This document shows positions 12,579 through 35,100 of a DNA stretch of 44,217 nucleotides, in pieces. The stretch is taken from the NCBI GenBank assembly GCA_964631365.1, contig CAZVZW010000002.1:9849-54065 (forward strand). Direction: 5' to 3'. Under the pieces are notes generated by a model that saw only the letters and a program-made list of their open reading frames with translations, had not been told where the DNA came from and made no database searches. How positions within the stretch are numbered: position 1 is the stretch's first letter; each line of letters begins with the position of its first letter. The position numbers were made by a program, and so were the translations under genes. Source of the stretch: an uncultured Chloroflexota bacterium. GTDB taxonomy: Bacteria; Chloroflexota; UBA11872; VXNJ01.

Positions 12579-13047
12579 TCAGGAGATAGCGCAGCCGCTC
12601 CAAATCGTCTAGGGTGGATATCAGGTGCTCCTGAGAACGGGGGACCAGGTAGTCATCCAGAAACGGGACATGGTCTCCGTAGAGCCAATCCTCCGTCTTA
12701 TTCACCCGGGTGCTCAACTCGCCGCCGGGGGTCTCGTACACCTTGCATGATGTGGGATAGAGATCCCCATCCCGGTCTTCCCGCCACTCGTGCACCGCGA
12801 CCTCCGGGTGAAGGCGCACGGGCAGACCCGTGAGGTCGGCGTGATCGGACTGGTCCCGCAGATATCTCGCCGGTATTTCGAGCATCGCATCCAGTCCGAG
12901 TTCCAGTTGCCGTTCAACAAATTCGAACGAGTCCTGACACTCGGCTCGGAGCGCGTCGTAGAGCATGAAGCAGCACGGCACATGGTCCGACTGCTGCCCC
13001 TGAATAGTCCGGAGCGTCCGTTCCCGGGAGGTAAGCGCTGCGGCCAT
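12517..13047 (-). pseudogene. truncated uroporphyrinogen-decarboxylase (URO-D/MtaA-like) family gene
   Basis: ATG 13047 sits behind AGGAG. The product MAAALTSRERTLRTIQGQQSDHVPCC...STLDDLERLRYLL (156 aa) resembles the N-terminal half of URO-D-family proteins. Similarity stops at about 12580. The last 20 codons are antisense to the comM fragment. Confidence 0.45.
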
Positions 13048-13213
13048 GGAGGATCTCCTGTCGGTCCGGCACCCGGGATCGTAGCAGCGCTCCCGTTCAA
13101 ATCCTTCGCGGCTTCGCATTCCTCCCTGCGGGTCGGCCGCAACCAGGCGCTCACCCCGCCGCCACCCCCGCAGCTGCCGCCCTCGCTGGTCCGGCGTCGG
13201 AGCCCACCGACGT

Positions 13214-13240
13214 CCCCGCTCCCACCCCGACCCCCACCCC
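13214..13240 (-). other. G-quadruplex-type motif inside a strongly strand-asymmetric C-rich spacer
   Basis: The minus strand reads GGGGTGGGGGTCGGGGTGGGAGCGGGG, five G3+ runs with loops of 1-3 nt. It sits in the 368-nt gap between the amidohydrolase stop (13416) and the URO-D-like start (13047). Confidence 0.4.
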
Positions 13241-13415
13241 AACGGCCCCTCTCCGGCCTGCCAACAAGCCCACCCAATCCGCCGTCCCAGTCCCCATCCC
13301 CACTCAGGCTCCCGAGACCCCGGCCGGCCTCCTCGCCCGGTTCACCGGACCGCCCGAGCTCGCCACCTCCGTCCTGTCGGCGGGCTCTTCCACGGCGACC
13401 CGCCCCTCGCCCCGC

Positions 13416-14324
13416 CTAGGCGTCCGCCTGATCCTCGTCCCATTCCGGGAAGAACTGCTTCCAGTTCTCATAGATGATCATGTCCTGCATTTCTTTCGGG
13501 ATCGTCGGCAGGCCGGTCCCCGCCACCGGCGCGTTGATGTTGCGCAGCCCGGTGATCACATTGTCGATAGTTCCCGACGGGAAATCCGACGCCAACAGGA
13601 TCTTGTGCATAATCCCGTACTCCATCGCATTGCTCATCGAGTGCCAGTAGCGCCAGGGGCGGTAGTGGACCGCCGAAATGTCGGTCCAGAGATGCGGCGA
13701 CTTCCGGATCAGCGCGATTAGGTCATCCTCCCAGGGGTGGCCCAGGTGGGCGATGACCATGCGCAGGTCGGGGAATTCCATGCAGATGTCTTCCAGCAGC
13801 AGTGGATTCGCCAGTCGCAGTTTTGACCGCGACGGGAACGTCGTCCCCTGGTGCCACATGACCGGCAGGTTATACTTCTGGCAGATTTCGAATACGCCCC
13901 AATACTGGCGGTCGGTAGGGTCGAAATCCTGGTAGACGGGGCCGAGCTTGAGTCCGCGCAGGCCTAGATCCTGAACGCAGCGCTCAAGTTCCTCCAGGTG
14001 TCCCGGTTGAGTCGGATCCACTGCCGCCCAGCCCACCAGTTTCTCCGGGTGCTCGGCCACGTAGTTGGCGATCACGTCGTTGGGCACCCAGAACCCGGTA
14101 GCCTTCGCCTGCATGCCAAAGACCACCACCCGGTCGGCCGTCGCGCTGACTTCCCAGTGGAGTTCCGGCGGTGAGTCGTAGGAATGCAGGTCCAGGCGCC
14201 CCTTGTAGGCCTGCCCGCCCGAGTACTTCAGCTTCACCAGCTTCGAAGCCAGCGCCTCCTGGGCAAACTCCTCGCTCTGGTGATCCGGATACCAGCCCAC
14301 GTGCGTATGCGCATCGACGATCAT
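13416..14324 (-). CDS. amidohydrolase_2 family metal-dependent hydrolase (TIM barrel; LigI/ACMSD-like)
   Basis: 302 aa. MIVDAHTHVG (HxH), AHLGHPW and LASDFP (Asp) motifs. Clear paralog of 22798-23637. Confidence 0.8.
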   Translation of the reverse strand: MIVDAHTHVGWYPDHQSEEFAQEALASKLVKLKYSGGQAYKGRLDLHSYDSPPELHWEVSATADRVVVFGMQAKATGFWVPNDVIANYVAEHPEKLVGWAAVDPTQPGHLEELERCVQDLGLRGLKLGPVYQDFDPTDRQYWGVFEICQKYNLPVMWHQGTTFPSRSKLRLANPLLLEDICMEFPDLRMVIAHLGHPWEDDLIALIRKSPHLWTDISAVHYRPWRYWHSMSNAMEYGIMHKILLASDFPSGTIDNVITGLRNINAPVAGTGLPTIPKEMQDMIIYENWKQFFPEWDEDQADA

Positions 14325-14358
14325 GTTCGGCCCCTATCGCGGTCTTGAATCCATAACA

Positions 14359-15300
14359 TCAGGAGGTTGGTTCAATTCCCAGTTCCAGCGGCATCTCCAG
14401 TCGCAGTGTCAGCGGCATCCCTCCGAAGGCTTGGCCGACCCGCAGGTCGCCGGCGATCGAAATCAACGCCAGCGCGTCGGCCGGCTCCAGCCCCAGGCAC
14501 GTTTCGATGGCGCGCATCATGTTGTCGACCGCCTCCCGCCGCGCCTCCGCGAAGCCCTCCGCGCAGGTCAGCACCATGATGCGGTCGCCCACCTGCACCC
14601 ACGGCCAGGACAGCGCCAACCCGGCCCGCAACCCGGCCTTCACCGTCACCTCCGCCGGGATCTCTAGCCCTACCCCCGAGAGTTCGCCATCGCCCTGGCA
14701 GGCGTGCACATCGCCGATCGACAGCAACGCCTCCGGTACCGCCACCGGCAGGAAGACCCGGCTACCCCGGCGCACCACCTTGTGGTCAAGGTTCCCGCCG
14801 TGGCGACCCGGTAGTCCGGTGATCACCGCTTCTCCAGCCGGTGCCGTTCCGATACAGCCGATCATCGGCTCCACCGGCAGCGCGATCCCATCGCCGTACT
14901 CGACCATTCCATCGACGACCCGACAGGTCCTGCCCAGTGGCCGCGGCACCCGTCCGACCGGAACCGGGCCCACATGCGCATGCCCGCCGCACCATCCCGG
15001 TGACCCCAGTTCAATCTCCAGCACATCCACCACCAGCGCGTCATCTGGCCGGGCACCGTCGATCGCCACCGGTCCGGTCACCGGATTGCCGGCTCCCGGA
15101 GTCGGTTGCGGCAGTTCGTAGACACTGCCGGTGGGCCGGTCCAGCAGTGCCCCGCTACGGGTGTCGCGGGTCGCGAACACGATCGTCGCCGGTGCGGCCA
15201 CGGCCAGTTGCGGCGCGAGCGCCGCGTCATAGGCAAACGCCGATTGGTCCCGGGCCAGGTGCGGCGGCCCGGTTCCCGCCTCCTCGCCGTCAACCGCCAT
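14359..15300 (-). CDS. acetamidase/formamidase family protein
   Basis: 313 aa starting from MAVDGEEAG. GNPVTGPV, GGNLDHK and CQGDGE blocks are typical of FmdA/AmdA. ATG 15300 lies 1 nt after the ATPase stop (TGAtATG). Confidence 0.8.
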   Translation of the reverse strand: MAVDGEEAGTGPPHLARDQSAFAYDAALAPQLAVAAPATIVFATRDTRSGALLDRPTGSVYELPQPTPGAGNPVTGPVAIDGARPDDALVVDVLEIELGSPGWCGGHAHVGPVPVGRVPRPLGRTCRVVDGMVEYGDGIALPVEPMIGCIGTAPAGEAVITGLPGRHGGNLDHKVVRRGSRVFLPVAVPEALLSIGDVHACQGDGELSGVGLEIPAEVTVKAGLRAGLALSWPWVQVGDRIMVLTCAEGFAEARREAVDNMMRAIETCLGLEPADALALISIAGDLRVGQAFGGMPLTLRLEMPLELGIEPTS

Positions 15301-15301
15301 A

Positions 15302-16411
15302 TCATTCACTCGAAAGATCTTCCTCAATTGCAAATGCGGCATCGATCGGCCAGTACAGCGTTACCGGCTTGCCAGCAGCAAGATCTTCCCGCTGTCCGGA
15401 ACTCACCAGCTGGGCCACTATCTGCCCCACGCTCGTCTCCACCAGGTACTGCGTCGTCGGCCCCAGGTAGATCTGGTTCGCGACCACTCCGTTCAGGCGC
15501 GCGTCGTCATCACGGCTGTCCCCGGCCGCCACAATCTCAATCCGTTCCGGCCGCACCGCCGCATGCACGGTATCGCCGGTGGCCGGTCGCGGGGCGATCT
15601 GCATCGGGATCACATCGCTGGCGTTCGGCCGCATCACCGCCACATCGCCGTCCAGTTCGTCCACCCGGAAATCAAACGCATTCAGCGTCCCCACGAAATC
15701 GGCCACGAACGCCGTCGAAGGTCGTTCGTAGATTTCGCGCGCCGTGCCCACCTGCAGCAGGCGGCCATCGTTCATGATGCCGATGCGATCGGACATCAAC
15801 AACGCCTCTTCCTGGTCGTGGGTGACGTACACGAACGTCGTCCCCAGCTCGTTCTGCATCGACTTGAGTTCGAGCTGCATGTGTTTTCTGAGTTTCACGT
15901 CCAGCGCGCTCAGCGGCTCATCCAGCAGCAGCACCATCGGGCGATTCACCAGTGCCCGCGCCAGGGCCACCCGCTGCTGCTGCCCACCGGAAAGCTGGTC
16001 CGCGCCGCGATTCTCCAGCCCGCCCACTCCGACCGTCTCCAGCATCTCGGAAACCCGCCCGGCGATCTCCTCCTTCGGCGTCTTCCTCACCTTCAACCCG
16101 TAGGCGACGTTGTCAAACACCGACATGTGTGGAAACAGCTCGTAGTTTTGGAAGACCATGTTCACCGGGCGCTTGTTGGGCGCCACATGAGTTACGTCCT
16201 CGCCACGCAAGTGGATGCTGCCCGAGTCCGGATACTCGAATCCCGCCAGCATGCGCAGCGTCGTCGTCTTTCCGCAGCCGCTCGGACCCAGGAGCGAGAA
16301 AAACTCTCCTTCGCGAATCTCCAGCTGCGCGTCAATGACCGCGCGGACGCTTCCAAAGCTCTTCGACACACCCTGCAGGTGGATGGCCACCTCCGTATTG
16401 CTATCGCTCAT
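15302..16411 (-). CDS. ABC transporter ATP-binding protein (PotA-like)
   Basis: Walker A GPSGCGKTT, signature LSGGQQQRVALARAL, Walker B LLLDEPLSALD, and a C-terminal TOBE-like domain. Confidence 0.9.
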   Translation of the reverse strand: MSDSNTEVAIHLQGVSKSFGSVRAVIDAQLEIREGEFFSLLGPSGCGKTTTLRMLAGFEYPDSGSIHLRGEDVTHVAPNKRPVNMVFQNYELFPHMSVFDNVAYGLKVRKTPKEEIAGRVSEMLETVGVGGLENRGADQLSGGQQQRVALARALVNRPMVLLLDEPLSALDVKLRKHMQLELKSMQNELGTTFVYVTHDQEEALLMSDRIGIMNDGRLLQVGTAREIYERPSTAFVADFVGTLNAFDFRVDELDGDVAVMRPNASDVIPMQIAPRPATGDTVHAAVRPERIEIVAAGDSRDDDARLNGVVANQIYLGPTTQYLVETSVGQIVAQLVSSGQREDLAAGKPVTLYWPIDAAFAIEEDLSSE

Positions 16412-17202
16412 TCGACCTCCTGGGTCATCCGGCGGGCAGCGAGAAACGCGAGGCCGGTGGTGGCGACCAGCAGGATCGCGCCGATGGCGTTCAGTGTCGG
16501 GTCGATGCCCTGGTTGATCCGTCCATACATCAGTAGAGGAAGGGTCTTCTCCTGGCCGGCGGTGAAGAAAGCGATTATGAACTCGTCAACCGAGATGGCC
16601 ATCGCCAGCATCATCGCCCCGATCACTGCCGGAAGGACAATCGGCAGCGTAATCGTGTAGAACGCTCTGAACCGGCCGGCCCCCAGATCGTAAGCGGCCT
16701 CCAGCAGGGAGAACCGAAAGCGGTCGAGTGCTGCGCCTATGACCAGGAACACAAATGGCAGAGCAACGACGACGTGACCGGCGATGGTCGCCCAGAGCGA
16801 GAAGCCGACATCAAGAGCGTGATACAAGACGGCCAGGCCGATGGAGTAGAGCAGCAACGGAAATGTTAGCGGCACCAGCGCGATTAGCAGTATGGTGCTC
16901 CGCGCCCGCCGGCCCAGGCGTGTCAGTCCCAGCGCCGCCATCAACCCCAATACGCCCGTCACCAGTCCGGTCGTGACCGCCGCGATCGCCGTTCGAACGA
17001 AGGCTCGCATCACCAGCACATCATTGAATATCTCGTCGTACCAACGCAGCGACAAGCCCTCGAACGGAAGGCTCATACGCGGGACCTGGTGAAACGAGAA
17101 TGTCACCATGATCAGGAGCGGCGTGAACAGGAAGAAGAGGATGATGCCAACATAGATGGCCGCGCCGACCGGTTTCCTACTGTGCCGCAACCGGGTAATC
17201 AT
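16408..17202 (-). CDS. ABC transporter permease (PotC-like)
   Basis: 264 aa, six TM helices, EAA loop (LLEAAYDLGAGRFRAFYTITLP). Overlaps both neighbouring genes by 4 nt. Confidence 0.85.
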   Translation of the reverse strand: MITRLRHSRKPVGAAIYVGIILFFLFTPLLIMVTFSFHQVPRMSLPFEGLSLRWYDEIFNDVLVMRAFVRTAIAAVTTGLVTGVLGLMAALGLTRLGRRARSTILLIALVPLTFPLLLYSIGLAVLYHALDVGFSLWATIAGHVVVALPFVFLVIGAALDRFRFSLLEAAYDLGAGRFRAFYTITLPIVLPAVIGAMMLAMAISVDEFIIAFFTAGQEKTLPLLMYGRINQGIDPTLNAIGAILLVATTGLAFLAARRMTQEVE

Positions 17203-18104
17203 CGCGATATCCAGCGCACGCCGGCCAGCAGCGCCGACAGTATCGCCACTACGACAAACACCAGCGATATTGCCAGCGCCGCACCAAGGGGCCAGTTGAG
17301 CCCGCCCCCGAACTGGAACGCAATCTGGTTACCGACCATCTGGTCTCCGGTTCCACCCACCATCGCCGGGGTCACCCACTCGGCGGCGGCGGCGATGAAA
17401 CTGAATGCGAACGCCGCGCTGACTCCCCGCATCGAAAGTGGCAGCACCACCTTCAACGCGGCGTGAATTTGACTGGAACCCAGATCGCGAGCCGCCTCGA
17501 TCAGGCGCGGAGAAATATTCTGCATGCTCGAGAAGATCGGAAGGACCCCCAGCGGAATGAGAAAATTCACCGATGTGATGACGATGGCGAACGGGCTGTT
17601 GAGAAAGAATCGGATCGGCTCGTCGACGACCCCCATGCCGATCAGGCTCTGGTTCAGGACGCCGGCGCGCCCCAGTATGTTGCGCCAGGCGTAGATCCGC
17701 ACCAGGTAGCCCCCGAACAGGCTGACCAGGACCAAAAAATACAGCAGCTGCCGGCGGCGCGGCATGACGTAGCTGATGATGTACGCGAACGGATAGCTGA
17801 CGAGCACCACGATGACCGAGATGATCGCCGCGATGCGCAGCGTACGGGCAAAAAACGCCCGCAGCGTGGAGCTGGTGATGACTTCCCAGTAGTTCTCGAG
17901 AGTCAGTTCGGGAACGAAATCGAAATTCCGGACCGAATAGAAGCTGAGCCCGATCAGAACCGTGATGGGCGCGACGAAAAAGACAAGAAAATAAAGAGAG
18001 GCGGGCGCCAGTTGGAGCCAGGCTCCAACCCGACGCCGCCTCCCTCGTAAGGGGCTCTTGCCGTCGGCCGCCTTCTCTGTGACGACCGCTCCGGTCGCGT
18101 GCAT
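17199..18104 (-). CDS. ABC transporter permease (PotB-like)
   Basis: 301 aa, six TM helices, EAA loop (LIEAARDLGSSQIHAALKVVLP). Confidence 0.85.
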   Translation of the reverse strand: MHATGAVVTEKAADGKSPLRGRRRRVGAWLQLAPASLYFLVFFVAPITVLIGLSFYSVRNFDFVPELTLENYWEVITSSTLRAFFARTLRIAAIISVIVVLVSYPFAYIISYVMPRRRQLLYFLVLVSLFGGYLVRIYAWRNILGRAGVLNQSLIGMGVVDEPIRFFLNSPFAIVITSVNFLIPLGVLPIFSSMQNISPRLIEAARDLGSSQIHAALKVVLPLSMRGVSAAFAFSFIAAAAEWVTPAMVGGTGDQMVGNQIAFQFGGGLNWPLGAALAISLVFVVVAILSALLAGVRWISR

Positions 18105-18124
18105 TCCGGTCGCCGACTAGGCTG

Positions 18125-19441
18125 CTATCCGGCCTTAATCGCCTGCCAGGCGTCCAGCCAGTCCTGGTATGACGTGTAGCCTTCTCCCGGATCTTCCGGA
18201 GGCGTGGCGTTCTTGAACATCGCTCCGGTGTCGGTGCCCAGGACTATCGAGTAGTCGTAGATCTGGGCACCGAGCTCGATCATGCCGATCGATTTCCGGT
18301 TGACCGTAGCCGAGATCAAATTCGTCGCCACCTGCGCCTGCACGTCCGGCGACAGCATCATGTCGATGTACTCGTACGCACAGTCCACGTCGTCGGCCGT
18401 GACGGGGATGGCCAGCCCATCCCACCAACCGCCGGCCGACTCCTGGAAGAAGCCGAAATCGAGCTTGACGCCCTTCTCGGCGGCCCAGGTGAGCATCGCT
18501 TCCCAACCGCCCATGGCCAGATCGATGTCGCCGGCGACAAGGCGGTCGGTGGCGTCCTGGTAGCCGGTGTTGAACGCCGACGCGTTCCCCACTATCACCG
18601 CGGCCTGCTCAACAATGACGTCCAATTGCTCAGGCGTGATGAGCGGTGCGTCTGGGGTCGCTACGTCGATGTACCCATCGGCGATACCAAGAAGGAAGTA
18701 GACCAGCGCGGGCGCGTCGAACAACACGAACCGGTCCTTCCATTCGGGTTCCATCATGTCGAGTATCGATGTTGGAGGGCTTTCAACCCGGGCCGGGTGG
18801 TAGACGTAGGGCCCGTCGCCCCAGGCGATCGGCGCGCCGTAAACGGTGCCGTCCGGGCCACGCAGGGATGAATTCTCCCGCAGGCCGGGCACCATGTCGT
18901 TCCAGTTCGACAGCCGGCTCGTGTCCAGGGGCTGGAGGATCCCGGACGCGATCATGCGCTGGGACCAGTGATACGGGATCGTCACCAGGTCGTATACATT
19001 GCCGACCTTGATCGAGGCGATCAATTCTGACCAGTTACCCGGCCAGGAGCCTTCCAGCGCCGTGTTCAGACCCTCACGCCAGGCGGCCAGTTCGACGTCA
19101 CCTTCTTCACCCGCAAGACCGATGAAGCTCAGCGTCGCGTCCTGGCAGGCCGACACCGTCGGCGGCGGAGTCACCAGTTTCTCTACCTCGACGATCTTCT
19201 CGACCTCCACCACCTTCTCCACCTCGACCACCGTCTCGACCTCAACGGTCTTCGTCGCACCGGGAACCTCCACCTCGACCACCCTGGTCTCGCCGGGAAC
19301 CTCCACCTCTTTTATGACCTCAACCGGAACTTCTTTGATAACTTCGCGAATCTCCGTGTCGCCACAAGCCGCCAGCGCCGCCATTCCTACCGTGCCGACG
19401 CCGATGCCTCGCAACAGCCCTCGTCTGGTCAGGTGCTCCAC
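18125..19441 (-). CDS. TAT-signal lipoprotein, extracellular solute-binding protein (family 1, PotD/PotF-like)
   Basis: GTG start. Signal peptide MEHLTRRGLLRGIGVGTVGMAALAAC carries a twin-Arg and the lipobox LAAC. An EV-rich linker follows, then a periplasmic binding fold. Confidence 0.85.
   Translation of the reverse strand: MEHLTRRGLLRGIGVGTVGMAALAACGDTEIREVIKEVPVEVIKEVEVPGETRVVEVEVPGATKTVEVETVVEVEKVVEVEKIVEVEKLVTPPPTVSACQDATLSFIGLAGEEGDVELAAWREGLNTALEGSWPGNWSELIASIKVGNVYDLVTIPYHWSQRMIASGILQPLDTSRLSNWNDMVPGLRENSSLRGPDGTVYGAPIAWGDGPYVYHPARVESPPTSILDMMEPEWKDRFVLFDAPALVYFLLGIADGYIDVATPDAPLITPEQLDVIVEQAAVIVGNASAFNTGYQDATDRLVAGDIDLAMGGWEAMLTWAAEKGVKLDFGFFQESAGGWWDGLAIPVTADDVDCAYEYIDMMLSPDVQAQVATNLISATVNRKSIGMIELGAQIYDYSIVLGTDTGAMFKNATPPEDPGEGYTSYQDWLDAWQAIKAG
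19154..19360 (-). repeat. low-complexity Glu/Val/Lys-rich tether encoded by degenerate short tandem units
   Basis: Residues 28-96 of the SBP read DTEIREVIKEVPVEVIKEVEVPGETRVVEVEVPGATKTVEVETVVEVEKVVEVEKIVEVEKLVTPPPTV. The DNA shows repeated ctcgacctccaccac-type units. Confidence 0.7.
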
Positions 19442-19543: not shown

Positions 19544-19562
19544 CGTTGCGCAGAACGCAACG
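19544..19562. promoter_or_regulatory. candidate IclR operator, perfect palindrome CGTTGCG-N5-CGCAACG (site 1)
   Basis: cgttgcgcagaacgcaacg lies in the divergent region, 103 nt upstream of the SBP start and 129 nt upstream of iclR. Extra half-sites occur nearby: gcaacg near 19477 and cgttgc near 19612. Confidence 0.45.
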
Positions 19563-24837: not shown

Positions 24838-25090
24838 GATTCCGAATTCGCTCCTGCTACCGGGCATCGCTGCCCATTGCCTGACCCGGGTGACGCGACC
24901 CTCGCGTCATCCCTCTTTCCTGTACCGGCCGATCGTTGCGCGGGCTCTGCCGTCGGGTTCGCCGCCCCGGCCGACGCTCCCGCACAATAACCGTCGAGCC
25001 TGTCCCGGCCGCGGTCCATCCGGTCCTCATTTCGCCGGCTCCGAACCCGCCCTGAAATCCCGCTTGGCCGTCATTGCGGGCAGTCTTGCG

Positions 25091-25109
25091 CGTTGCGCCC
25101 TTCGCAACT
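25091..25109. promoter_or_regulatory. candidate IclR operator, CGTTGCG-N5-CGCAACt (site 2)
   Basis: cgttgcgcccttcgcaact lies in the divergent region between the M20 operon (start 24837) and the Gfo/Idh/MocA operon (start 25239). Confidence 0.4.
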
Positions 25110-26264: not shown

Positions 26265-26302
26265 AGGAGAGAACACTGGAATATTCCGTTCAAGTTCTGA
26301 GC

Positions 26303-28190: not shown

Positions 28191-29240
28191 ATGAGCCATG
28201 TGATGACCGTTCGCGGCCCCATCGACCCATCGGAAGTCGGTCCCACGCTCACCCACGAGCACATCTTCATGGACGGCCGTCCGGGCTGGGACCCGTCCGA
28301 GTTGCACGATCGCTCCATCGGCGAGCGCCCCCTCTCACCCCGCACCGCTGGCATCGCGCGCTGGAACGGCTCCGGCATTCGCGACAACCTGGCACTGCTC
28401 CATGACGACGACTACGACCTGATGCGTGGCGAAGTCGCCGAATTCGTGGAAGCCACCGACGGCAAGGGAGTCCTCGTCGAACTCACCATCGTCGGGATAA
28501 ATCCCCAGCCTGCCGCCCTCCTCAAGCTGTCCAACAACCTCGACCTGCACATCGTCGAAGGTTGCGGCTACTACGTCCACTCCACCCATCCTGAGTCGCT
28601 TGAAGACCAGAGCGTCGACGAGATCGCCGACGAGCTCCACAGGATCGTCACCGAAGGGTTCGACGGCACCCCGGTTCGTCCCGGGCTCATCGGCGAGATC
28701 GGCACCTCCGAGGAGCTTCAACCTTGCGAAGAGCGCGTCCTGCAGGCCTCGGCCCGGGTCGCCATCAAGACTGGGCTCCCGATCAACATCCACGCCCATC
28801 CGCCGAAGCTCCCGGTACTGATGCGCATCCTCGACATCCTCGAGGAAGCCGGCCACGATCTCCGCCGCACCTCGATCTCCCACCTCGACGAAATCTGGGA
28901 CCTCGACTATCACATTCAAGTCCTGAGGCGCGGCGTCATCACCGGCTTCGACAGCTTCGGCCAGGACGGTTACTTCAGCCCCACCTGGAAGTCGATGAGC
29001 GACCACACCAAGATGACCACCATGGTCGCCCTGATCGATCACGGTTTCGAAGACCAGTTGGTCATGTCACAGGACATCTGCAAGAAGCACTACCTGCTCG
29101 AATTCGGCGGCCTCGGGTACGACCACGTTGTCCGCCGCATCGTCCCGCGCCTGAAGAGTGTCTTCGGCGTCGACGACGCGACTATCGACAAGCTACTCGT
29201 GCAGACTCCGCGGCGTTTCCTGACCATCGACAGGGACTAG
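28191..29240 (+). CDS. phosphotriesterase-family (Php/PTER-like) hydrolase, copy 1
   Basis: 349 aa. MSHVMTVRGPI, THEHI (HxH), GEIGTSE, NIHAH, SHLDE and SQD ligand pattern. Confidence 0.9.
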   Translation: MSHVMTVRGPIDPSEVGPTLTHEHIFMDGRPGWDPSELHDRSIGERPLSPRTAGIARWNGSGIRDNLALLHDDDYDLMRGEVAEFVEATDGKGVLVELTIVGINPQPAALLKLSNNLDLHIVEGCGYYVHSTHPESLEDQSVDEIADELHRIVTEGFDGTPVRPGLIGEIGTSEELQPCEERVLQASARVAIKTGLPINIHAHPPKLPVLMRILDILEEAGHDLRRTSISHLDEIWDLDYHIQVLRRGVITGFDSFGQDGYFSPTWKSMSDHTKMTTMVALIDHGFEDQLVMSQDICKKHYLLEFGGLGYDHVVRRIVPRLKSVFGVDDATIDKLLVQTPRRFLTIDRD

Positions 29241-29306: not shown

Positions 29307-30353
29307 CTAGGCCGGGTCCGGGCGCGTCAGCAGCCGGCGCGGAGTCTCCAGCAGTGCCTTGTCGATCGCCGTCTGCGACAGCCCCATGTGCTCCCGCATG
29401 CGCGGGATCACCCGCTCCAGCACGTGGTCATAGCCCATCCCCGCGTAGCGACGCAGGTAGTGCTTCTTGCCCATGTCCTGCGCCACCACCAACTGATCCT
29501 CAAATCCGCGCTCGGCCAGAGACACCATCGTCTGCGCCTTTTCCTGGTCGCTCAGCGATTTCCACGTCGGCGTGAAATAGCCGTCCTGGCCAAAGCTGTC
29601 GAACCCGGTCACCACGCCCTTTTCCAGCACCTGGGTGTGGTAGTCGAGGTCCATGATCTCATCCAGGTGCGACAGGTAGATCCGGTCGGCCGGCAGTCCC
29701 TCTTCCAGAAGTAGATCGATGATGCGTAGTGTCACCGCCAGCTTTGGCGGATGGCAGTGCACGTTCACTGCCGTCCCCGTCGCCAGCCCTGCCCGCGCCG
29801 ATGCCCGCAGCACCCGTTCCTCACAATCCTGCAGCGTTTCCGACGTCCCGATCTCGCCGAGAATTCCGGGCCGCACATCGGTGTCCAGTAAGCCCTCGTT
29901 CAGTTGCGTCAGGAAGTACTCGGTCATCCGCTCCACGGAGGCGTCCTCCAGCCACTCCGGGTGACAATCGTGCACGTAGAAGCCCAGCCCCGCCACCACG
30001 TTCAGGTCCAGTTCCTCGGACAGTTGGCGCATCTTCGCCGGCGCCGGTGAGATACCCTCGATCGTCAACTCCACTAGGCAATTGCCGCCCGCCTCCTTAA
30101 AATGCCCCACCTCTTCTAGGATGAGCAGGTAGTCCCTGTCCGGCGACGCCACCAGGTCGTCCAGGTAGGCCCCGTTGTCCCAGCGCGCCAGCGCCGCTAG
30201 GCTTGCGTCGATCGGCTGCCGGCCGTCCTCCGGATCGGCCAGTCCCGACGGGTCCCAGAACTGACTGGCATCGAAGAATATGTGCTCGTGCATCATCGTC
30301 GGACCCAGGTCCCCGGGTCGGATTGGCCCCCGTACCGTCATGATATGACTCAT
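29307..30353 (-). CDS. phosphotriesterase-family (Php/PTER-like) hydrolase, copy 2
   Basis: 348 aa. MSHIMTVRGPI, MHEHI, GEIGTSE, NVHCH, SHLDE and AQD. Confidence 0.9.
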   Translation of the reverse strand: MSHIMTVRGPIRPGDLGPTMMHEHIFFDASQFWDPSGLADPEDGRQPIDASLAALARWDNGAYLDDLVASPDRDYLLILEEVGHFKEAGGNCLVELTIEGISPAPAKMRQLSEELDLNVVAGLGFYVHDCHPEWLEDASVERMTEYFLTQLNEGLLDTDVRPGILGEIGTSETLQDCEERVLRASARAGLATGTAVNVHCHPPKLAVTLRIIDLLLEEGLPADRIYLSHLDEIMDLDYHTQVLEKGVVTGFDSFGQDGYFTPTWKSLSDQEKAQTMVSLAERGFEDQLVVAQDMGKKHYLRRYAGMGYDHVLERVIPRMREHMGLSQTAIDKALLETPRRLLTRPDPA

Positions 30354-30393
30354 CGCAGTCCCCTTCGTTTGCTACTTCCCGAAACAATCCCGG

Positions 30394-31443
30394 CTACGCG
30401 TCGCCGTCCCGCGTCAACAGCCGTCGCGGTGTGCCCACCAGCGCCTTGTCGATCGCCGCCTGCGACACGCCCATGAACTTCTTCATCCGCGGCATCACCC
30501 GTTCGATCACGTGGTCATAGCCCATCCCGCCGTAGCACCGCATGTAGCGTTTTCGACCGATGTCCTGGGCCACCACCAGCTGATCCTCGAATCCCCGATC
30601 AATTAACGCCACCATCATCTGCATCTTCTCGAGGTCGCTCCGCGACTTCCAGGTGGGCGTGAAATGCCCATCCTGGCCAAAGCTGTCGAACCCCGTCACC
30701 ACGCCCCGTTCCAGAACCTGGGTGTGGTAGTCCAGGTCCATGATCTCGTCCAGGTGGGAGAGGTATACCCGGTCCGCCGGCAGCCCTTCCCCGATCAGGG
30801 TATCGATGATCCGCAGCGTCACCTCCAGCGCCGGGGGATGGCAGTGCACGTTCACCGTCGTGCCCGTCGCCACCCCGGACCGCCCCGCCGCCTGCAAGAC
30901 CCGGATCTCACAGTCGTAGATCTCCTCCGATGTTCCGATCTCGCCCACGATCCCCGGCCGCACGTCCGTACCCAGCAACCCGCCGTGTAGTTGTTTCAGG
31001 AAGTAGTCGGTGAGCTCCTCCACCGACGCGTTGTCCACCCACGGCGGATGCACCGCGTGCACGTAGAAACCGAGCCCGGCGACCACGTGGAGATCTACCT
31101 CCTCCGACAGATCACGCACCCGTAGCGGCGCCGGCTCAATGCCCTCGACGGACAGCTCGACGAGGCAGCTGCCGCCGCAGGCTTTGTAGTGCCCGACCTC
31201 CTCAACTAACAGGTCGTAGTCGGCATCCGGCAACATCACGACATCGTCCAGAAACCCGGTGCCGTGCCATCGGGCGAGGCCCCCCAGGCTGGCGTCAATG
31301 GGCCTTCTGCCAACCTCCGGATCCGTCATTTCGGACGGGTCCCAGAAGTCCGCGTTCGTAGTCTTGAAGATGTGCTCGTGCATCATCGTCGGCCCTAGAT
31401 CCTCGGGGCGGATCGGCCCCCGCACAGTCATGATGTGACTCAT
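30394..31443 (-). CDS. phosphotriesterase-family (Php/PTER-like) hydrolase, copy 3
   Basis: 349 aa with the same ligand pattern as copy 2. RBS GAAGGGG. Lies 40 nt upstream of copy 2. Confidence 0.9.
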   Translation of the reverse strand: MSHIMTVRGPIRPEDLGPTMMHEHIFKTTNADFWDPSEMTDPEVGRRPIDASLGGLARWHGTGFLDDVVMLPDADYDLLVEEVGHYKACGGSCLVELSVEGIEPAPLRVRDLSEEVDLHVVAGLGFYVHAVHPPWVDNASVEELTDYFLKQLHGGLLGTDVRPGIVGEIGTSEEIYDCEIRVLQAAGRSGVATGTTVNVHCHPPALEVTLRIIDTLIGEGLPADRVYLSHLDEIMDLDYHTQVLERGVVTGFDSFGQDGHFTPTWKSRSDLEKMQMMVALIDRGFEDQLVVAQDIGRKRYMRCYGGMGYDHVIERVMPRMKKFMGVSQAAIDKALVGTPRRLLTRDGDA

Positions 31444-31467
31444 CTCAAAACCCCCTTCGTTGGACAG

Positions 31468-32535
31468 CTAGTCAGACCATTGGTCCCGGCCGTCGCCGAC
31501 CCGGGTCAGCAGCCGCCGCGGCGTATCCACCAGCGCCTTGTCAATGGCCGTCTGCGACACGCCCAGGTGCTTCTTCATCCGCGGCATCACCCGCTCGATC
31601 ACGTGGTCGTAGCCCATGCCGCCGTAGCGTCGCATGTAGTGCTTCTTGCCGATGTCCTGGGCCACCACCAGCTGATCCTCGAATCCCCGGTCGATCAACG
31701 CCACCATCATCTGCATCTTCTCGAGGTCGCTCCGCGACTTCCACGTCGGCGTGAAGTACCCGTCCTGGCCAAAGCTGTCGAACCCCGTCACGACCCCTCG
31801 CTCCAGCACCTTCGTGTGGTATTCAACGTCGTCGATTTCGTCGAGGTGGGAAAGGTAGACCCGGTCCGCCGGAAGCCCCTGGCCGGTCAGCGTGTCAATA
31901 ATTAGCAGCGTCGTGTCCAGGACCGGCGGATGGCAGTGCACGTTCACTGCCGTGCCCGTTGCCACCCCGGCTCTCCCCGCCGCCTGCAGAACCCGAATCT
32001 CGCAGTCGACGATGTCTTCCGACGTCCCGATCTCGCCAATGATCCCCGGCCGCACGTCCGTACCCAGTAACCCTTCGTTCAGTTGCTTCACGAAGTAGTC
32101 CGTCAACTCCTCCACCGACGCATTGTCCACCCAGGGTGGGTGGATCGCGTGCACGTAGAAACCGAGCCCGGCCACCACGTGCAGATCGAGCTCCTGGGAC
32201 AGGTCGCGCATGCGCACCGGCGCCGGTTTGATGCCCTCGATCGACAGCTCCACGATGCAACCGCCGCCGCACGATTTGTAGTGCCCCAGTTCCTCGATCA
32301 TCAGGTCGTAATCGGCGTCGGGCAACAACACGATATCGTCACGAAACATGCTGCCGTTCCACCGGGCGAGCCCCGAAAGGCTGGCGTTCATCAACTTTTC
32401 GCCAAGTTCCGGATCTTCGAGATCGGACGGGTCCCAGAACGCTGCACTGGTGTCTTTAAAGATGTGCTCATGCATCATCGTGGGGCCGACTTCTTCGGGC
32501 GAAATCGGACCGCGTACGGTCATTACGTGGCTCAT
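31468..32535 (-). CDS. phosphotriesterase-family (Php/PTER-like) hydrolase, copy 4
   Basis: 355 aa with the same ligand pattern. Lies 24 nt upstream of copy 3 and shares long identical DNA blocks with it. Confidence 0.9.
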   Translation of the reverse strand: MSHVMTVRGPISPEEVGPTMMHEHIFKDTSAAFWDPSDLEDPELGEKLMNASLSGLARWNGSMFRDDIVLLPDADYDLMIEELGHYKSCGGGCIVELSIEGIKPAPVRMRDLSQELDLHVVAGLGFYVHAIHPPWVDNASVEELTDYFVKQLNEGLLGTDVRPGIIGEIGTSEDIVDCEIRVLQAAGRAGVATGTAVNVHCHPPVLDTTLLIIDTLTGQGLPADRVYLSHLDEIDDVEYHTKVLERGVVTGFDSFGQDGYFTPTWKSRSDLEKMQMMVALIDRGFEDQLVVAQDIGKKHYMRRYGGMGYDHVIERVMPRMKKHLGVSQTAIDKALVDTPRRLLTRVGDGRDQWSD

Positions 32536-32614
32536 TCCAACCTCCCGGCTCCGTCCCGGCCGGGCCCTTACCCGGGTTCCGGCCTGCCCGACGGATCACT
32601 CGTGGCGGCCTGGC

Positions 32615-32632
32615 TGTTGCGCAGACCGCAAT
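32615..32632. promoter_or_regulatory. candidate IclR operator, tGTTGCG-N5-CGCAAt (site 3)
   Basis: tgttgcgcagaccgcaat lies 80 nt upstream of PTE copy 4 (start 32535) and 188 nt upstream of the creatininase-family gene (start 32820). Confidence 0.35.
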
Positions 32633-32819
32633 GGCGATGCGGAATTATAGCCACAACGGCCCCCGGTTCCCGTCGGTCGGCCATGGCAGTGGCTCCGTCC
32701 GGGAAGAGCCGATCTTGCGGCGCCGTGCAACCGATGGAGGAACGGACGCCCGCGTCTATGCAAGAATTCGCGGGGCCGCGAGTTTGACGCGAACTGGCGG
32801 TACCGGAAAGTGGCTGCAC

Positions 32820-33587
32820 ATGAACGACGCGACGACAATCCACCAGATTCAGGATCTCACCCGCGAGGAAGTCGCCCGCATCGCCCCGGATGCCGTGGCC
32901 GTCTTCCCGACCAGCTCGACCGAGCAGCACGGGCCGCACCTCGCGGTCCGGGTCGACGCGCTCCTCGTCGGCGAAGTTGTTCAACGGGCCATGCGGCGCG
33001 TTGCGACCTCCCGCCCCGTCGTGCTCGTACCGCCCCTAGTGTTCGGCGCTTCCGATCACCACCGACCTTGGGCCGGGACGTTGTCACTGAACCTGGACAC
33101 CTACATGCGGGTCGTCCGGGACGTTTGCGAATCGCTTTCTCTCAACGGCTTTCGACGGGTGCTACTGATGAATGGACACGGTGGCAACGACGCCCCGAAC
33201 ATAGTCGCCGCTCGCGACGTCGCCAATCGCTTTGACATCCGCATCGACGCCTACTCCTACTGGAACATCAACCGGGACGCGCTGCTAGCCCTCGCACCGG
33301 GCGAATTCGGCGCCCTGCCCGGTCACGCTTCAGATTTTGAGACCTCCTGCATGCTCGCCGTCGATCCCAACTCGGTCCGTCCCGATTTTGAATCCCTGAT
33401 AGGTGCGGCGATGGCCGCCACAATCGACGGCGAGACCGCCGACTTCGGAATCGCCGGGCCCGCCGGCAAGCCAACTCTCGGTTTCTCCGACGACTCCAGC
33501 CACGCCAACGCGGAGATTGGTGAAGCGTTCTTGGATCGGGCCGGACAGAGCTTGGCCGAGTACATCGATCGCGAGTTCGGCGGGTAG
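32820..33587 (+). CDS. creatininase (creatinine amidohydrolase/MftE-like) family protein
   Basis: 255 aa starting from MNDATTIHQI. STEQHGPHL and LLMNGHGGN motifs are characteristic of the creatininase family. The upstream 63 codons of the track ORF are unlikely to be coding. Confidence 0.8.
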   Translation: MNDATTIHQIQDLTREEVARIAPDAVAVFPTSSTEQHGPHLAVRVDALLVGEVVQRAMRRVATSRPVVLVPPLVFGASDHHRPWAGTLSLNLDTYMRVVRDVCESLSLNGFRRVLLMNGHGGNDAPNIVAARDVANRFDIRIDAYSYWNINRDALLALAPGEFGALPGHASDFETSCMLAVDPNSVRPDFESLIGAAMAATIDGETADFGIAGPAGKPTLGFSDDSSHANAEIGEAFLDRAGQSLAEYIDREFGG

Positions 33588-33612
33588 CCCCCGGGCTCCA
33601 GGTCCGGCCGAA

Positions 33613-34563
33613 TCAGTCCAGCGCCGCGATCAGCCCGCTCATATAGCCCACCGCGTGCGCCCGCGCCCGGTGGCCGTAGGTCGAATCGTTCACCATTCCC
33701 GGCACGTGATCGTCGATGAGGTAGCCATCGAATCCGGCCTCATGCAGCGTCCGAATCACCTCCGCCAGGTCCAGGTTCCCCTCGCCCAGGAAGCACTCTT
33801 CGAAGCTCTCGGCGGTCCCGCGAACGTCACGGAAGTGGACGTAGCAGATTCGCTCCCGCTCAGCGAAGTAGCGCACCGCTTCCAGGCAGTCGGAACCCAT
33901 CATCGCCGACCACGAACCGGTGCAGAACTGCATGCCCAGGTTCGGGCTCGGAGCCGTCGCGAACAGCCGCTTGAACGCCTCAAAATCGATGAGCGCCCGC
34001 CCCACTCCGCCCAGCAACGGCACCGGCGGATCGTCCGGGTGGACCGCCAGTCGCACCCCGGTCGCTTCCGCAACCGGCAGCACCGCGTCCAGGAAGTATT
34101 CGAGATTCGCCCACATTTCCGCGACCGGGTAGGTCCGCCCGTGCGACACCGGAGCCCGCTGCGCCAGTTCCAGGTCGAAATCCGCCACCCGGGCTCCTCC
34201 TCGCCCCCGCTTTGCCCGGGATGTTCGCCAGACCCCGTCCGTCATCCAGTGAAAGCCCAGTATCGGGATGCCCGCCCGGCCCACGTTGCGGATGGTCGCG
34301 CAATAGTCCTCGATCTGCTCATCGCGCCCCGGCAACCCGAGCAGGGGGCGGTCGTAGAAGGTTGGATAAGAGGACTCGACCGCGAACAACTCCAATCCCG
34401 CCGATTCAACCCGCCGGCGATGACGGAGCAGGTCCGCGTACTCCCAGCGCTTTTCGCCGGGCAGTTCTGGGGTGTTCAACTGGATACCGGTCGCGCCCAG
34501 CTGAGCCGCGAACGTCAGCGCCTCATCATCCAGTTGCTTGAGTTGTCCGACGCCGACCCGCAT
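33613..34563 (-). CDS. xylose-isomerase-like TIM-barrel protein resembling mannonate dehydratase (UxuA family)
   Basis: 316 aa. GLPGRDEQIEDYCATIRNVGRAGIPILGFHWM resembles the UxuA block RDE.IENY..T.RN...AGI.V.CYNFM, and the C-terminal CYVHFRDV is also UxuA-like. Assignment is by eye only. Confidence 0.55.
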   Translation of the reverse strand: MRVGVGQLKQLDDEALTFAAQLGATGIQLNTPELPGEKRWEYADLLRHRRRVESAGLELFAVESSYPTFYDRPLLGLPGRDEQIEDYCATIRNVGRAGIPILGFHWMTDGVWRTSRAKRGRGGARVADFDLELAQRAPVSHGRTYPVAEMWANLEYFLDAVLPVAEATGVRLAVHPDDPPVPLLGGVGRALIDFEAFKRLFATAPSPNLGMQFCTGSWSAMMGSDCLEAVRYFAERERICYVHFRDVRGTAESFEECFLGEGNLDLAEVIRTLHEAGFDGYLIDDHVPGMVNDSTYGHRARAHAVGYMSGLIAALD

Positions 34564-35026
34564 CGACCCTCCCGGTGTCCATCGCCCAAATCGCGGCCAC
34601 TATACCGGGCTGCTCGCGACCAATCCGGGCGCTGGCTTCAGCCGCTCGCCCGCCGACTCGTCACGTCCCGCGGCCGCCTAGCTCAGGCCGCGGCAGTTCA
34701 CGCAGCGTCGCTTGACCCGGTCCAGCACCTCGTCGAAGTCCCCGCCGTCCTCCAGGAGCACTGCCCCCACCTTCTGCAGCATCGCGTTCGGCGTGATCGG
34801 ATTTCCTAACACCTCGCACAGAGCCTCGGCATCGCCCAGGTGCTAGGCGAGGGGCTGCAACTGCCGCGGCGGGCCGGTCGTAGCGATACAGGGATAAGGT
34901 ACAGGTCATACCGACCCGACGGGCGGGTGTACGTCGGTATGGGCCACCGGTGGCAGGACCCCGGGACAGCCCTATGCGGTTGCCGGGCCCTCCCCCGGGT
35001 GGAAATCGGGAGGGCCTTGGATGCGG

Positions 35027-35100
35027 TCGGGGCGAAAGGATTTGAACCTTCGGCCTCATCGACCCGAACGATGCGCTCTGCCAAGCTGAGCTACGCCCCG
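35027..35100 (-). tRNA. tRNA-Pro (anticodon CGG)
   Basis: The reverse complement folds as a cloverleaf: acceptor CGGGGCG/CGCCCCG, D arm GCUC-AGCUUGGCA-GAGC, anticodon arm CAUCG-UUCGGGU-CGAUG (C34 G35 G36, G37), variable loop AGGCC, T arm GAAGG-UUCAAAU-CCUUU, discriminator A. 74 nt. CCA is not fully encoded. Confidence 0.92.

Follow-up and report, generated by a model that had tools for sequence, protein, structure and literature searches.

We analysed a 44,217-nt stretch of contig CAZVZW010000002.1 (assembly GCA_964631365.1) from an uncultured Chloroflexota bacterium, hereafter the window, and within it a block of ~22 kb (12585-34973) that a preliminary description, made from the letters alone, had taken for an undescribed locus devoted to the ring-opening and oxidation of lactone-, lactam- or sugar-acid-like compounds. 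A six-frame listing of open reading frames (ORFs) combined with Pfam searches finds 20 intact genes at ~13.4-34.6 kb in divergent units (Table 1), and Pfam agrees with the families listed earlier for 19 of them; the exception, the second gene of Unit C, was assigned by a fold model. Unit A (minus strand) comprises a twin-arginine translocation (TAT) lipoprotein that would act as substrate-binding protein (SBP), two permeases, an ATPase, an FmdA/AmdA-like hydrolase and an Amidohydro_2 protein, and the gene for an IclR-family regulator is on the plus strand. Unit B (minus) comprises an M20 protein, a further Amidohydro_2 protein and two MR_MLE enolases; Unit C (plus) a GFO/IDH/MocA oxidoreductase (GFO), the Pfam-less metallo-beta-lactamase (MBL)-like ORF, a second GFO and a phosphotriesterase-family (PTE) gene; and Unit D (minus) three PTE genes in tandem. 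The paralog sets named in the preliminary description hold in the Pfam calls, with amino acid identities of 54-82% among the four PTE, 52% between the two GFO, 39% between the two enolases and 44% between the two Amidohydro_2 proteins. ARAGORN and Rfam both recover the tRNA-Pro(CGG) gene to the right of the block, its 3' end directed toward it as had been described, and no other known RNA element, riboswitches included, was found.

The genes of the block are found together in other genomes. Eighty metagenome loci were fetched with an alignment of the four PTE paralogs, and a second survey covered members of the MBL-like family on long contigs (3.1-Mb, 5.9-Mb, 124-kb and 227-kb); loci from other genomes and metagenomes carry L-numbers here (L017, L018, L022, L025-L028, L103-L105 and L115-L118). 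PTE homologues at 48-62% identity have the same SBP, permeases and ATPase nearby, whereas those at 38% or less do not. In L026-L028 the SBP, permease, ATPase and PTE genes form one same-strand run, and beside the 48-62% homologues lie varying subsets of MBL-like, M20, GFO, IclR, creatininase-like, enolase and Amidohydro_2 genes; the long contigs of the second survey show the same neighbours. Homologues of at least 13 of the 20 block genes recur side by side in this way. Gene order varies between the clusters: L115 reproduces that of window 16.4-27 kb (SBP; IclR; enolase-enolase-Amidohydro_2-M20; GFO-MBL-like), and the transporter operon of L117 encloses FmdA, PTE and GFO genes. The MBL-like protein is the best-conserved member throughout (57-79% identity). 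M20 homologues are 56-59% identical in L025-L027, L103 and L104 and were also called in L115-L117; creatininase-family genes recur in L025-L027, L103, L104 and L115-L117; paralog a of Amidohydro_2 has a 68% identical orthologue in L103, and paralog b adjoins M20 and enolase genes in L025, L103, L104 and L115. The recurrent core thus consists of a PotD-type ABC importer, GFO, the MBL-like protein, at least one PTE of the PTER/Rsp3690 clade, M20, Amidohydro_2, MLE-subgroup enolases and a creatininase-like protein. No homologue of the UxuA-like gene was detected in the fetched cluster loci, and none of the URO-D-like fragment in any fetched locus. Since the cluster-bearing genomes span 46-75% GC and lack the strong GC skew of the host (magnitude below 0.03), the module is phylogenetically widespread. 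The second GFO and the additional PTE copies are not common to the homologous clusters; because these extra copies are missing there and the tandem PTE triplet is 71-82% identical, the PTE expansion is, as judged from the comparison of sequences, lineage-specific.

Further support for the block as a functional unit comes from a palindrome, GTTGCG-N5-CGCAAC. With at most one mismatch it occurs three times in the window, each time in a divergent promoter gap of the block and nowhere else, against 0.15 sites expected by chance; 0 of 100 shuffles reached three. Two of the sites are preceded, at a distance of 20-40 nt, by promoter-like hexamer pairs that face the minus-strand operons (19610-19581 for palindrome 1; 25158-25130, minus strand, for palindrome 2). 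The palindrome is also present in L115 and L116, both in the SBP/IclR gap and in the gap upstream of GFO, and in the creatininase/GFO gap of L104, the counterpart of the M20/GFO gap of the window; the background among the comparison loci is 3 matches in 642 kb. The iclR gene occupies the same position in L115 and L116 and is also present in L026 and L027. The closest NCBIfam models of its product are BhcR (136 bits against a cut-off of 350) and KdgR, both below cut-off. That the palindrome recurs three times in the block, and in homologous clusters at matching positions, supports the view that it is the operator, and the block one IclR regulon, with binding of the regulator at these sites predicted.

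Composition sets the block apart from its flanks by orientation. Bulk GC skew runs from +0.15 to +0.19 on either side of the block and from -0.16 to -0.21 over most of its length, regardless of gene strand, and the cumulative skew peaks at 12673 and reaches its minimum at 34837. Measured on the plus strand, GC skew at third codon positions (GC3 skew) is positive in all 15 flank genes (mean +0.263) and negative in 19 of the 20 block genes (mean -0.266), whereas the GC content of these positions (GC3) hardly distinguishes block (0.78-0.89) from flanks (0.79-0.91). The strand-specific tetranucleotide profile of the block correlates with that of the flanks at r = 0.60 as it lies and at 0.97 (0.971) after reverse complementation; for comparison, r is 0.975-0.987 for equally oriented loci of the same lineage and does not exceed 0.86 for unrelated high-GC loci, among them the homologous clusters of other taxa. 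Because GC3 equals that of the flanks and the reverse complement matches the host's tetranucleotide signature, the block is not foreign, and a compositionally deviant island was rejected on the same two grounds. The idea of an accessory island at the tRNA thus gives way to host-like DNA in reversed orientation: the data largely establish that the block is DNA of the host lineage, or of a source with the same mutational signature, that has come to lie where it is replicated in the opposite direction. The skew of the lineage is itself unusually strong for a genome of 65-70% GC (0.15-0.2 in bulk, ~0.26 at third positions), and the relatives are alike in this.

The junctions were examined with the help of relatives found by a reference-genome scan with the YeiH-like flank gene, which returned two Chloroflexota metagenome-assembled genomes (MAGs) at 91% and 84% amino acid identity, one of them from the Arabian Sea oxygen-deficient zone. 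DNA homology of L017 and L018 to the window ends at 12584. L018 continues with an intact 515-residue comM followed by dprA; a tblastn search with the L018 ComM matched the window only over residues 2-72, the comM remnant representing residues 2 to ~52, and no other comM and no dprA sequence was found in the window. On the right, L022, found through a 77% identical orthologue of a FAD-binding gene, is collinear with window 39124-34974, a stretch that takes in the same tRNA-Pro together with the 51 nt past its 3' end, and then has Crp-like, NHL, Pyr_redox_2 and NUDIX genes where the window has the block. Since this collinearity runs to 34974, the tRNA is native flank and the block ends at 34973; the gene span given in the preliminary description stands, but its right limit, with a breakpoint at the tRNA, has to be moved 51 nt past the tRNA. 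That description had named synteny in relatives as a criterion, and in the relatives both the left and the right site are found without the block, with comM intact in L018. The aligned flank segments share ~81-89% nucleotide identity with L017, L018 and L022, and at the points that correspond to the junctions the skew of the relatives does not flip; for contiguity of the two flanks in relatives, whose contigs are short, tblastx returned only noise. Both junctions are real: at ≥99.6% identity, 12 distinct contigs, each from a different sample or assembly, run across the left one and 2 across the right one. All 8 contigs with an identical YeiH-like gene carry the junction, and an empty site or intact comM was seen in 0 of 8; the arrangement is fixed in the sampled population. 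Another indel separates the lineages ~1.5 kb from the left junction: at ~11018-11027 the relatives hold an extra ~2.4-2.7 kb between secD and the YeiH-like gene (L018 4759-7170; L017 2904-5591), which in L018 contains an FG-GAP-like ORF.

Both end genes of the block are severed. For the left-end fragment (13047-12585) Pfam and PDB searches were empty and a word-index homologue search returned the fragment alone, but an exhaustive HMMER search recovered full-length homologues of 385-405 residues that match PF01208, so the URO-D label given earlier to this fragment converging on comM is correct. A profile built from these homologues has a single match in the window, over profile positions 3-144 of 379. 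The right-end fragment (HLGDAEALCEV...RRCVNCRGLS followed by a stop) has no Pfam match and, even at E≤10 and without filters, none to the URO-D-family profile; presumably it is what the rearrangement left of another gene. Several routes to this arrangement were rejected. A single in-place inversion would have left comM codons from ~53 onward and the last ~235 URO-D residues at the opposite junctions, and they are neither there nor elsewhere in the window; a circular intermediate or permutation is at odds with the orphan right-end fragment, which does not match the URO-D-family profile; and a tRNA-targeted integrative island does not fit a breakpoint 51 nt past the tRNA with no recombinase and no att repeat. 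On the latter we agree with the preliminary description: by Pfam, the ORFs include no integrase, transposase or recombinase, the block leaves no coding space unassigned, and no direct repeat of the tRNA 3' end or other att-like repeat was found beyond chance-level 12-mers. One such 12-mer at 13095-13106 (GTTCAAATCCTT) matches the T-arm of tRNA-Pro in inverted orientation; it lies within the block, ~510 nt from the left end, a position that corresponds to neither breakpoint, and chance alone would give ~0.7 matches of this kind. The adjoining stretch 13150-13330, between the Amidohydro_2 gene and the URO-D remnant, is very C-rich (skew ~-0.3, GC 0.73) and apparently non-coding. The data support a sequence of events in which a native piece, cut out with illegitimate ends, was pasted between comM codon ~52 and the point 51 nt past tRNA-Pro, where it replaced whatever occupied the site and broke comM. 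The data support a date after the split from the L017, L018 and L022 lineages and before diversification of the sampled population.

Taken together, these results lead us to propose, with a probability of about 0.6, that the block is a lineage-expanded copy of a widespread, uncharacterised catabolic cluster that forms one IclR regulon and consists of native, relocated DNA. The predicted regulon and its conserved linkage are supported at the in silico level, and the native but relocated status of the block is shown in silico. Several points weigh against this proposal. The sub-block 16401-19441 has GC3 skews of -0.01, +0.02 and -0.03 (first permease, second permease and SBP), a GC content of ~0.61 and the weakest host signature in the block (reverse-complement r = 0.82), and may have a history separate from the rest; the donor may also have been a strain of close kinship that shares the mutational bias. 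The operator is a prediction from sequence. The UxuA-like gene and the two end fragments have neither an operator nor a counterpart in the homologous clusters, so that one regulon may not span all 20 genes; otherwise the earlier claim of a single regulon is supported by the shared palindrome and the conserved linkage. Distant members of the MBL-like family stand in sugar-acid contexts (L105, L118), which suit sugars or lactones better than amines or amides. Finally, because no enzyme reaches an equivalog threshold, each step of the pathway outlined below is a family-level guess.

Table 1. Features of the block and its borders (window coordinates).
Feature	Position	Strand	Basis and remarks
comM 5' remnant	12429..12584	+	~52 codons of a 515-codon gene; ChlI-domain match; left junction ~12582-12584
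URO-D-family remnant	12585..13047	-	N-terminal 159 residues of a ~395-residue protein, cut at the junction
Amidohydro_2 paralog a	13416-14324	-	PF04909, 1.9e-30; last gene of the transporter operon
Short FmdA/AmdA-family (formamidase/acetamidase-like) hydrolase	14359-15300	-	PF03069, 1.6e-22
PotABCD-type ABC importer, ATPase	15302-16411	-	Pfam; whole importer 15302..19441
Importer permeases	16408-17202 and 17199-18104	-	Pfam
Importer TAT-lipoprotein SBP	18125-19441	-	Pfam
Operator-like palindrome 1	19545..19561		GTTGCGCAGAACGCAAC; SBP/iclR gap
IclR-family regulator	19691-20515	+	HTH_IclR and IclR_C domains
MLE-subgroup enolase paralogs (two)	20467-21612, 21662-22783	-	MR_MLE_N and MR_MLE_C domains
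Amidohydro_2 paralog b	22798-23637	-	PF04909, 5.6e-28
M20 (ArgE/DapE-type) deacylase	23668-24867	-	Peptidase_M20 and M20_dimer; first gene of Unit B
Operator-like palindrome 2	25092..25108		GTTGCGCCCTTCGCAAC; M20/GFO gap
GFO/IDH/MocA oxidoreductase a	25248-26264	+	three GFO Pfam domains; start from domain boundary and orthologue lengths
Pfam-less, lactonase-like MBL-fold protein without HxHxDH	26261-27061	+	predicted structure
GFO/IDH/MocA oxidoreductase b	27081-28091	+	Pfam; 52% identical to a
PTER/Rsp3690-clade PTE paralog 1	28191-29240	+	PF02126, 3.2e-57
PTER-clade PTE paralogs (three, tandem)	29307-30353, 30394-31443, 31468-32535	-	Pfam
Operator-like palindrome 3	32616..32632		GTTGCGCAGACCGCAAT, 1 mismatch; PTE4/creatininase gap
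Creatininase-family hydrolase	32820-33587	+	PF02633, 2.3e-50
Short UxuA-like / xylose-isomerase-like TIM-barrel protein	33613-34563	-	UxuA and AP_endonuc_2 domains
Orphan C-terminal ORF fragment, 54 residues	34678..34842	-	right end of block
Start of native right flank	34974..35100	-	51-nt hairpin-containing spacer and tRNA-Pro(CGG) 35025-35100

The four PTE paralogs match Pfam PF02126 at 175-196 bits and fall far under the cut-offs of the NCBIfam OPH and Php equivalogs. Their best PDB matches are 3k2g and 9efa (E values of 1e-47 to 6e-60; 163-207 bits, against 79-113 bits to Php, parathion hydrolases and PLL-type entries), and paralog 1 in particular matches 3k2g at 6e-60 and 9efa at 1.8e-53, well above Php and parathion hydrolases. 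The entry 9efa is a PDB "phosphotriesterase-related protein" (PTER), and 3k2g is Rsp3690, a metal-stimulated esterase described, as cited in PMC5341072, as a non-specific carboxylesterase. All four paralogs align with both over their full length, including the helical insertion after strand 1, and carry the HEH, GIIGEIG, H, SHLDE and QD motifs of an amidohydrolase TIM barrel, which places them in the PTER/Rsp3690 clade. PTER is an N-acetyltaurine amidohydrolase (PMC11374699) that also hydrolyses N-acetyl-beta-alanine (PMC11374699, PMC13311154), and the structure of the sponge PTER assigns sulfonate binding to Arg209 and Arg238 and proton donation to His305 (PMC12873775). We mapped these residues by alignment, the sponge metal-ligand numbering fitting the 9efa chain with a two-residue offset. 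The six PTER metal ligands of a Glu-bridged, binuclear site are all kept, as are Tyr131 (oxyanion) and Phe270; Arg238 is replaced by Glu in all four paralogs, Arg209 by K/K/A/V and His305 by C/G/G/G, and the paralogs also diverge from one another at pocket positions. Two assignments were rejected on this evidence: the paralogs are not PLL-type lactonases, the role given to them in the preliminary description, their nearest relatives being an amidohydrolase and a carboxylesterase, and they are not N-acetyltaurine hydrolases, because Arg238, Arg209 and His305 are replaced. They are therefore PTER-clade hydrolases that, from the alignment, would act on another, non-sulfonate substrate.

The MBL-like ORF matches neither Pfam, Lactamase_B included, nor NCBIfam, and belongs to a family of at least 514 members, nearly all annotated as hypothetical. 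Its AlphaFold (AF2) model (pLDDT 94.4, pTM 0.92, from a 53-sequence alignment) retrieves with Foldseek the N-acyl-homoserine lactone (AHL) lactonases 8x78, AiiA, GcL and AiiB and 4-pyridoxolactonase, at TM scores of 0.74-0.81 and a probability of 1.0. The protein is thus predicted with high confidence to have the alpha-beta/beta-alpha MBL fold in a lactonase-like form, and the earlier label of an AiiA-like MBL fold was right at fold level. When its profile is aligned with 8x78, AiiB and GcL, the family reads T-P-[LF]-[EQ]-L-Y-T-T in place of HxHxDH; H190, D210 and H251 line up with MBL motifs 3-5, and an insertion carries the invariant H137, H139, H144, H146 and D147. The stop codon of GFO a (26264) overlaps the likely start of the MBL-like gene (26261), an arrangement that fits the oxidation of a substrate followed by the opening of a ring. 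In NCBIfam the two GFO enzymes come closest to IolG, with 155-165 bits (155 for GFO a) where the cut-off is 355. Less closely related MBL-like proteins are encoded beside DHDPS and enolase genes (L105) and, at 60% identity, between enolase and SDR genes in an L-fucose-type operon (L118 6555-11603: fucosidase, RhaM, AKR, Amidohydro_2, enolase, MBL-like, SDR). No gene for a FAH-type diketo-acid hydrolase lies within 10 kb on either side of the latter operon, in which the MBL-like family could supply the missing step.

No enzyme of the block reaches an NCBIfam equivalog cut-off; the importer ATPase, which passes the TIGR01187 potA subfamily model (385 against 355.6), is the sole block protein to pass any such model. 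The importer is of the PotABCD type, having a PotA-type ATPase with a TOBE domain, two BPD_transp_1 permeases and a PotD/PotF-like SBP whose best matches are PotD, YdcS and PotF, far below their equivalog cut-offs, and this affiliation points to a substrate that probably bears an amine. The SBP N-terminus (MEHLTRRGLLRG...LAAC) has a twin-arginine motif (TRRGLL) followed by a lipobox, as expected of the TAT lipoprotein described earlier. Within its gene, 18-nt tandem repeats at 19172-19312 encode an E/V/K-rich linker (VEVEKVVEVEKIVEVEKLV...) from the lipobox to the folded domain.

The enolases were taken earlier for acid-sugar dehydratases, which is not supported. Their best NCBIfam models are mucon_cyclo (171 and 198 bits), cis-3-hydroxy-L-proline dehydratase (cis-3-OH-Pro) and DgcA (N-acetyl-D-Glu racemase), and their best PDB matches are (chloro)muconate cycloisomerases, N-succinyl-amino-acid racemase (NSAR) and Ala-Glu epimerase; the acid-sugar dehydratase models (GalD, ManD, FucD, RhamD, GlucD) score 23-117 bits, all below cut-off. 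They belong instead to the MLE subgroup, with its cycloisomerases, N-acyl-amino-acid racemases and dipeptide epimerases. By eye, the KVK at strand 2 and the D/E/D metal ligands are kept, and both read SVY at what we take to be the site of the strand-6 catalytic Lys of MLE-subgroup enzymes. The Amidohydro_2 proteins have weak PDB matches to the uncharacterised BB4693, which is the sole match of paralog b, and to gamma-resorcylate decarboxylase, ACMSD and LigW. Neither matches LigI or L-fucono-1,5-lactonase in the PDB at E≤1e-3, so the LigI or fuconolactonase type once assumed for them has no detectable counterpart there. Further proteins of the block likewise remain under their thresholds: the FmdA/AmdA-like protein scores 62 bits against the FmdA equivalog cut-off of 500, M20 161 bits against 217.6 (TIGR01910), and the UxuA-like protein 161 bits against 191 (PRK03906). 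The creatininase-like protein lies below all NCBIfam cut-offs, with a PDB match to creatininase at 8.6e-21; the IolN model gives it 47.7 (cut-off 245), less than the creatininase and MftE models do. With IolG and IolN both below cut-off, a Thermotoga-type oxidative inositol pathway (IolG, IolM, IolN, IolO) is not supported. The earlier statement that no characterised pathway has such a gene set agrees with these scores and with limited literature searches, in which no description of this gene combination was found.

A working scheme can be drawn from these family assignments, with low confidence in the order of steps and in the class of substrate. Without inducer, the IclR protein would bind GTTGCG-N5-CGCAAC just 3' of the promoters from which the divergent operons are read. 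Import of one or more small, polar, probably amine-bearing compounds would fall to the lipoprotein SBP with the PotABC-like transporter, and the GFO enzymes would oxidise a hydroxyl or hemiacetal group in them. Ester or lactone bonds, newly formed or pre-existing, might then be opened by the MBL-like and PTER-like enzymes; the M20, FmdA-like, creatininase-like and Amidohydro_2 enzymes would strip acyl or amide groups, and the MLE-type enolases would epimerise or cycloisomerise the acid products, with the four diverged PTER-like copies widening the substrate range. A more specific form of this idea, possible although the odds are against it, is that the conserved module is a widespread, undescribed catabolic pathway for an abundant polar nitrogen-bearing metabolite (for instance amino-sugar-like, opine-like or an N-acyl-amine), nucleated by a new MBL-fold family in which a relocated His cluster replaces the HxHxDH metal site, and widened in this lineage by a four-fold radiation of PTER-clade hydrolases whose specificity pockets have changed.

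The interpretation first given to the block, a regulon for the ring-opening of lactones, lactams or sugar acids with PTE, Amidohydro_2 and MBL lactonases, enolase and UxuA dehydratases and possibly a mobile tRNA-side segment, we consider unlikely as a whole, but its lactone or sugar-acid part is a live rival for the GFO/MBL/enolase core. It would explain why a GFO stop codon runs into the likely start of the gene for a protein predicted to be closest in fold to lactonases, why distant MBL-like relatives sit in an L-fucose-type operon and beside a DHDPS aldolase and an enolase, and it recalls the paralog sets of SAR202 for which sugar, lactone and sugar-acid pathways were proposed (PMC10444878). 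It fails to accommodate PTE paralogs of the PTER/Rsp3690 clade rather than PLL, enolases of the MLE subgroup, Amidohydro_2 proteins with no detectable sequence match to LigI or fuconolactonase in the PDB and a polyamine-type importer, and the block has no 2-keto-3-deoxy-acid aldolase, dehydrogenase or hydrolase. Relatives without the block at the same site would suit its accessory segment, against which stand the host-like composition, the absence of an integrase and of att repeats, and a breakpoint set off from the tRNA by 51 nt. Of the chemistry proposed earlier, import followed by ring-opening and oxidation, the GFO/lactonase-fold pair is thus consistent with the data and the roles given to PTE and enolase proteins are not; the weak PDB matches of the Amidohydro_2 proteins include none of the lactonase type, and the importer is of polyamine type. 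An amide-centred alternative, which we hold to be less probable still, has the block salvage N-acylated amines or amino acids (N-acetyl-polyamine-, N-acyl amino acid- or dipeptide-like), with the PTER-like, M20, FmdA-like and creatininase-like enzymes as deacylases and the MLE enolases as racemases or epimerases. The PotD/PotA-type importer, the hydrolysis of N-acetyltaurine and N-acetyl-beta-alanine by PTER (PMC11374699, PMC13311154), the Glu found for Arg238 in 4 of 4 PTE paralogs, which would favour a cationic or neutral group, the NSAR and dipeptide epimerases among the closest enolase structures, and the ArgE/DapE-type M20 in one operon with Amidohydro_2 and both enolases all agree with it. 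Yet the residue proposed to protonate the leaving amine of PTER substrates, His305, is replaced by Gly or Cys, which the esterase-like relatives also have there, the two GFO and the lactonase-fold protein, the most conserved pair, are left without a role, and the block contains no acyltransferase or amino-acid catabolic gene.

Two further explanations deny that there is a pathway or even a real locus. That unrelated small operons became neighbours in a paralog-rich genome, with no common pathway or regulator, seems very improbable: paralogs of this kind do number in the dozens in SAR202-type genomes (PMC10444878), neither operator nor conserved linkage was seen for the UxuA-like gene and the end fragments, and cluster gene order varies, but the operator is confined to the block within the window and keeps its position elsewhere, and the same families co-occur across genomes of 46-75% GC. 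An assembly chimera or a mis-oriented scaffold piece could produce two abrupt skew changes and truncated genes at the left junction; we rejected it, and leave it hardly any likelihood, since 12 distinct contigs from different samples and assemblers cross the left junction and 2 contigs the right one, all at ≥99.6% identity. We thus retain the relocated, lineage-expanded copy of a conserved catabolic cluster as our reading of the block.

Some features of the flanks deserve a record. A 528-residue ORF at 3321-4907 (plus) between alaS and ruvX has a weak Baseplate_J-like match (E 2.8e-5); other contigs of the species retain this gene, which is unexpected beside housekeeping genes. The right flank encodes a MurT/GatD pair (lipid II amidation) at 36347-38475, and a 482-residue gene at 40866-42314 (minus) has no Pfam or NCBIfam match.

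As a target for enzyme discovery, the block offers ~10 families under one regulator, one operator and one binding protein, with no assigned functions. Practical handles are the SBP for ligand screening, the IclR-operator pair for effector screening and the MBL-fold family (at least 514 members) as a structural target. The module recurs among others in marine Chloroflexota, a group in which expanded paralog sets are believed to influence how dissolved organic matter is turned over; the link to this expansion drawn in the preliminary description is reasonable, the relatives being Chloroflexota MAGs and comparable sets being known from SAR202 (PMC10444878). The block has destroyed comM and sits where L018 has dprA, which bears on natural competence in the lineage. 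Finally, it carries a caution for island hunting, as strand-aware composition separates native DNA that has moved from a foreign island.

Compared with known systems, the block is of an ordinary kind: a catabolic regulon tied to a transporter and assembled from familiar superfamilies, in a lineage with a record of such paralog sets (PMC10444878). New are the conserved, widely distributed module with its predicted operator, the Pfam-less MBL-fold family with a non-canonical motif, the PTER-clade paralogs with altered pockets, and an "island" that is relocated native DNA which broke comM. Like tRNA-associated or comM-inserted islands, the segment is bordered by a broken comM and a tRNA, and related species lack it at this site; unlike them, it has no integrase, transposase or att repeat, its breakpoint lies 51 nt past the tRNA, its reverse complement is indistinguishable from the host in composition, and its end genes are truncated. 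As in the IclR-regulated catabolic operons of the KdgR, PcaR/PcaU and BhcR regulons, the iclR gene diverges from a transporter/catabolic operon and a palindromic operator, predicted here, is repeated across several promoter regions, but the regulator of the block falls below every equivalog cut-off. The block PTEs share with PTER and Rsp3690 the full-length alignment, the helical insertion, the Glu-bridged binuclear site, Tyr131 and Phe270, and differ in having Glu for Arg238, K/K/A/V for Arg209 and Gly/Cys for His305. The MBL-like protein resembles AiiA, AiiB, GcL and 4-pyridoxolactonase in predicted fold and in the residues of motifs 3-5, and departs from them in its 14-19% identity, its lack of a Lactamase_B match, its T-P-[LF]-[EQ]-L-Y-T-T in place of HxHxDH and the invariant His/Asp cluster carried in an insertion. 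The closest parallels are the SAR202 loci (Lim et al. 2023, PMC10444878), whose paralog sets were proposed to serve sugar, lactone and sugar-acid pathways in parallel, and the non-phosphorylative L-fucose/L-rhamnose pathway (PMC11199699). A marine Chloroflexota host, clustered dehydrogenase, enolase-superfamily and Amidohydro_2 paralogs, and a dehydrogenase paired with a lactonase-like protein, a distant relative of which belongs to a fucose-type operon, are common ground. The block differs in its importer, which is PotD-type rather than MFS or sugar ABC, in its MLE-subgroup enolases and in having no 2-keto-3-deoxy-acid aldolase, dehydrogenase or hydrolase, and it adds amide or ester hydrolases foreign to those pathways (four PTER-like, and the M20, FmdA-like and creatininase-like proteins).

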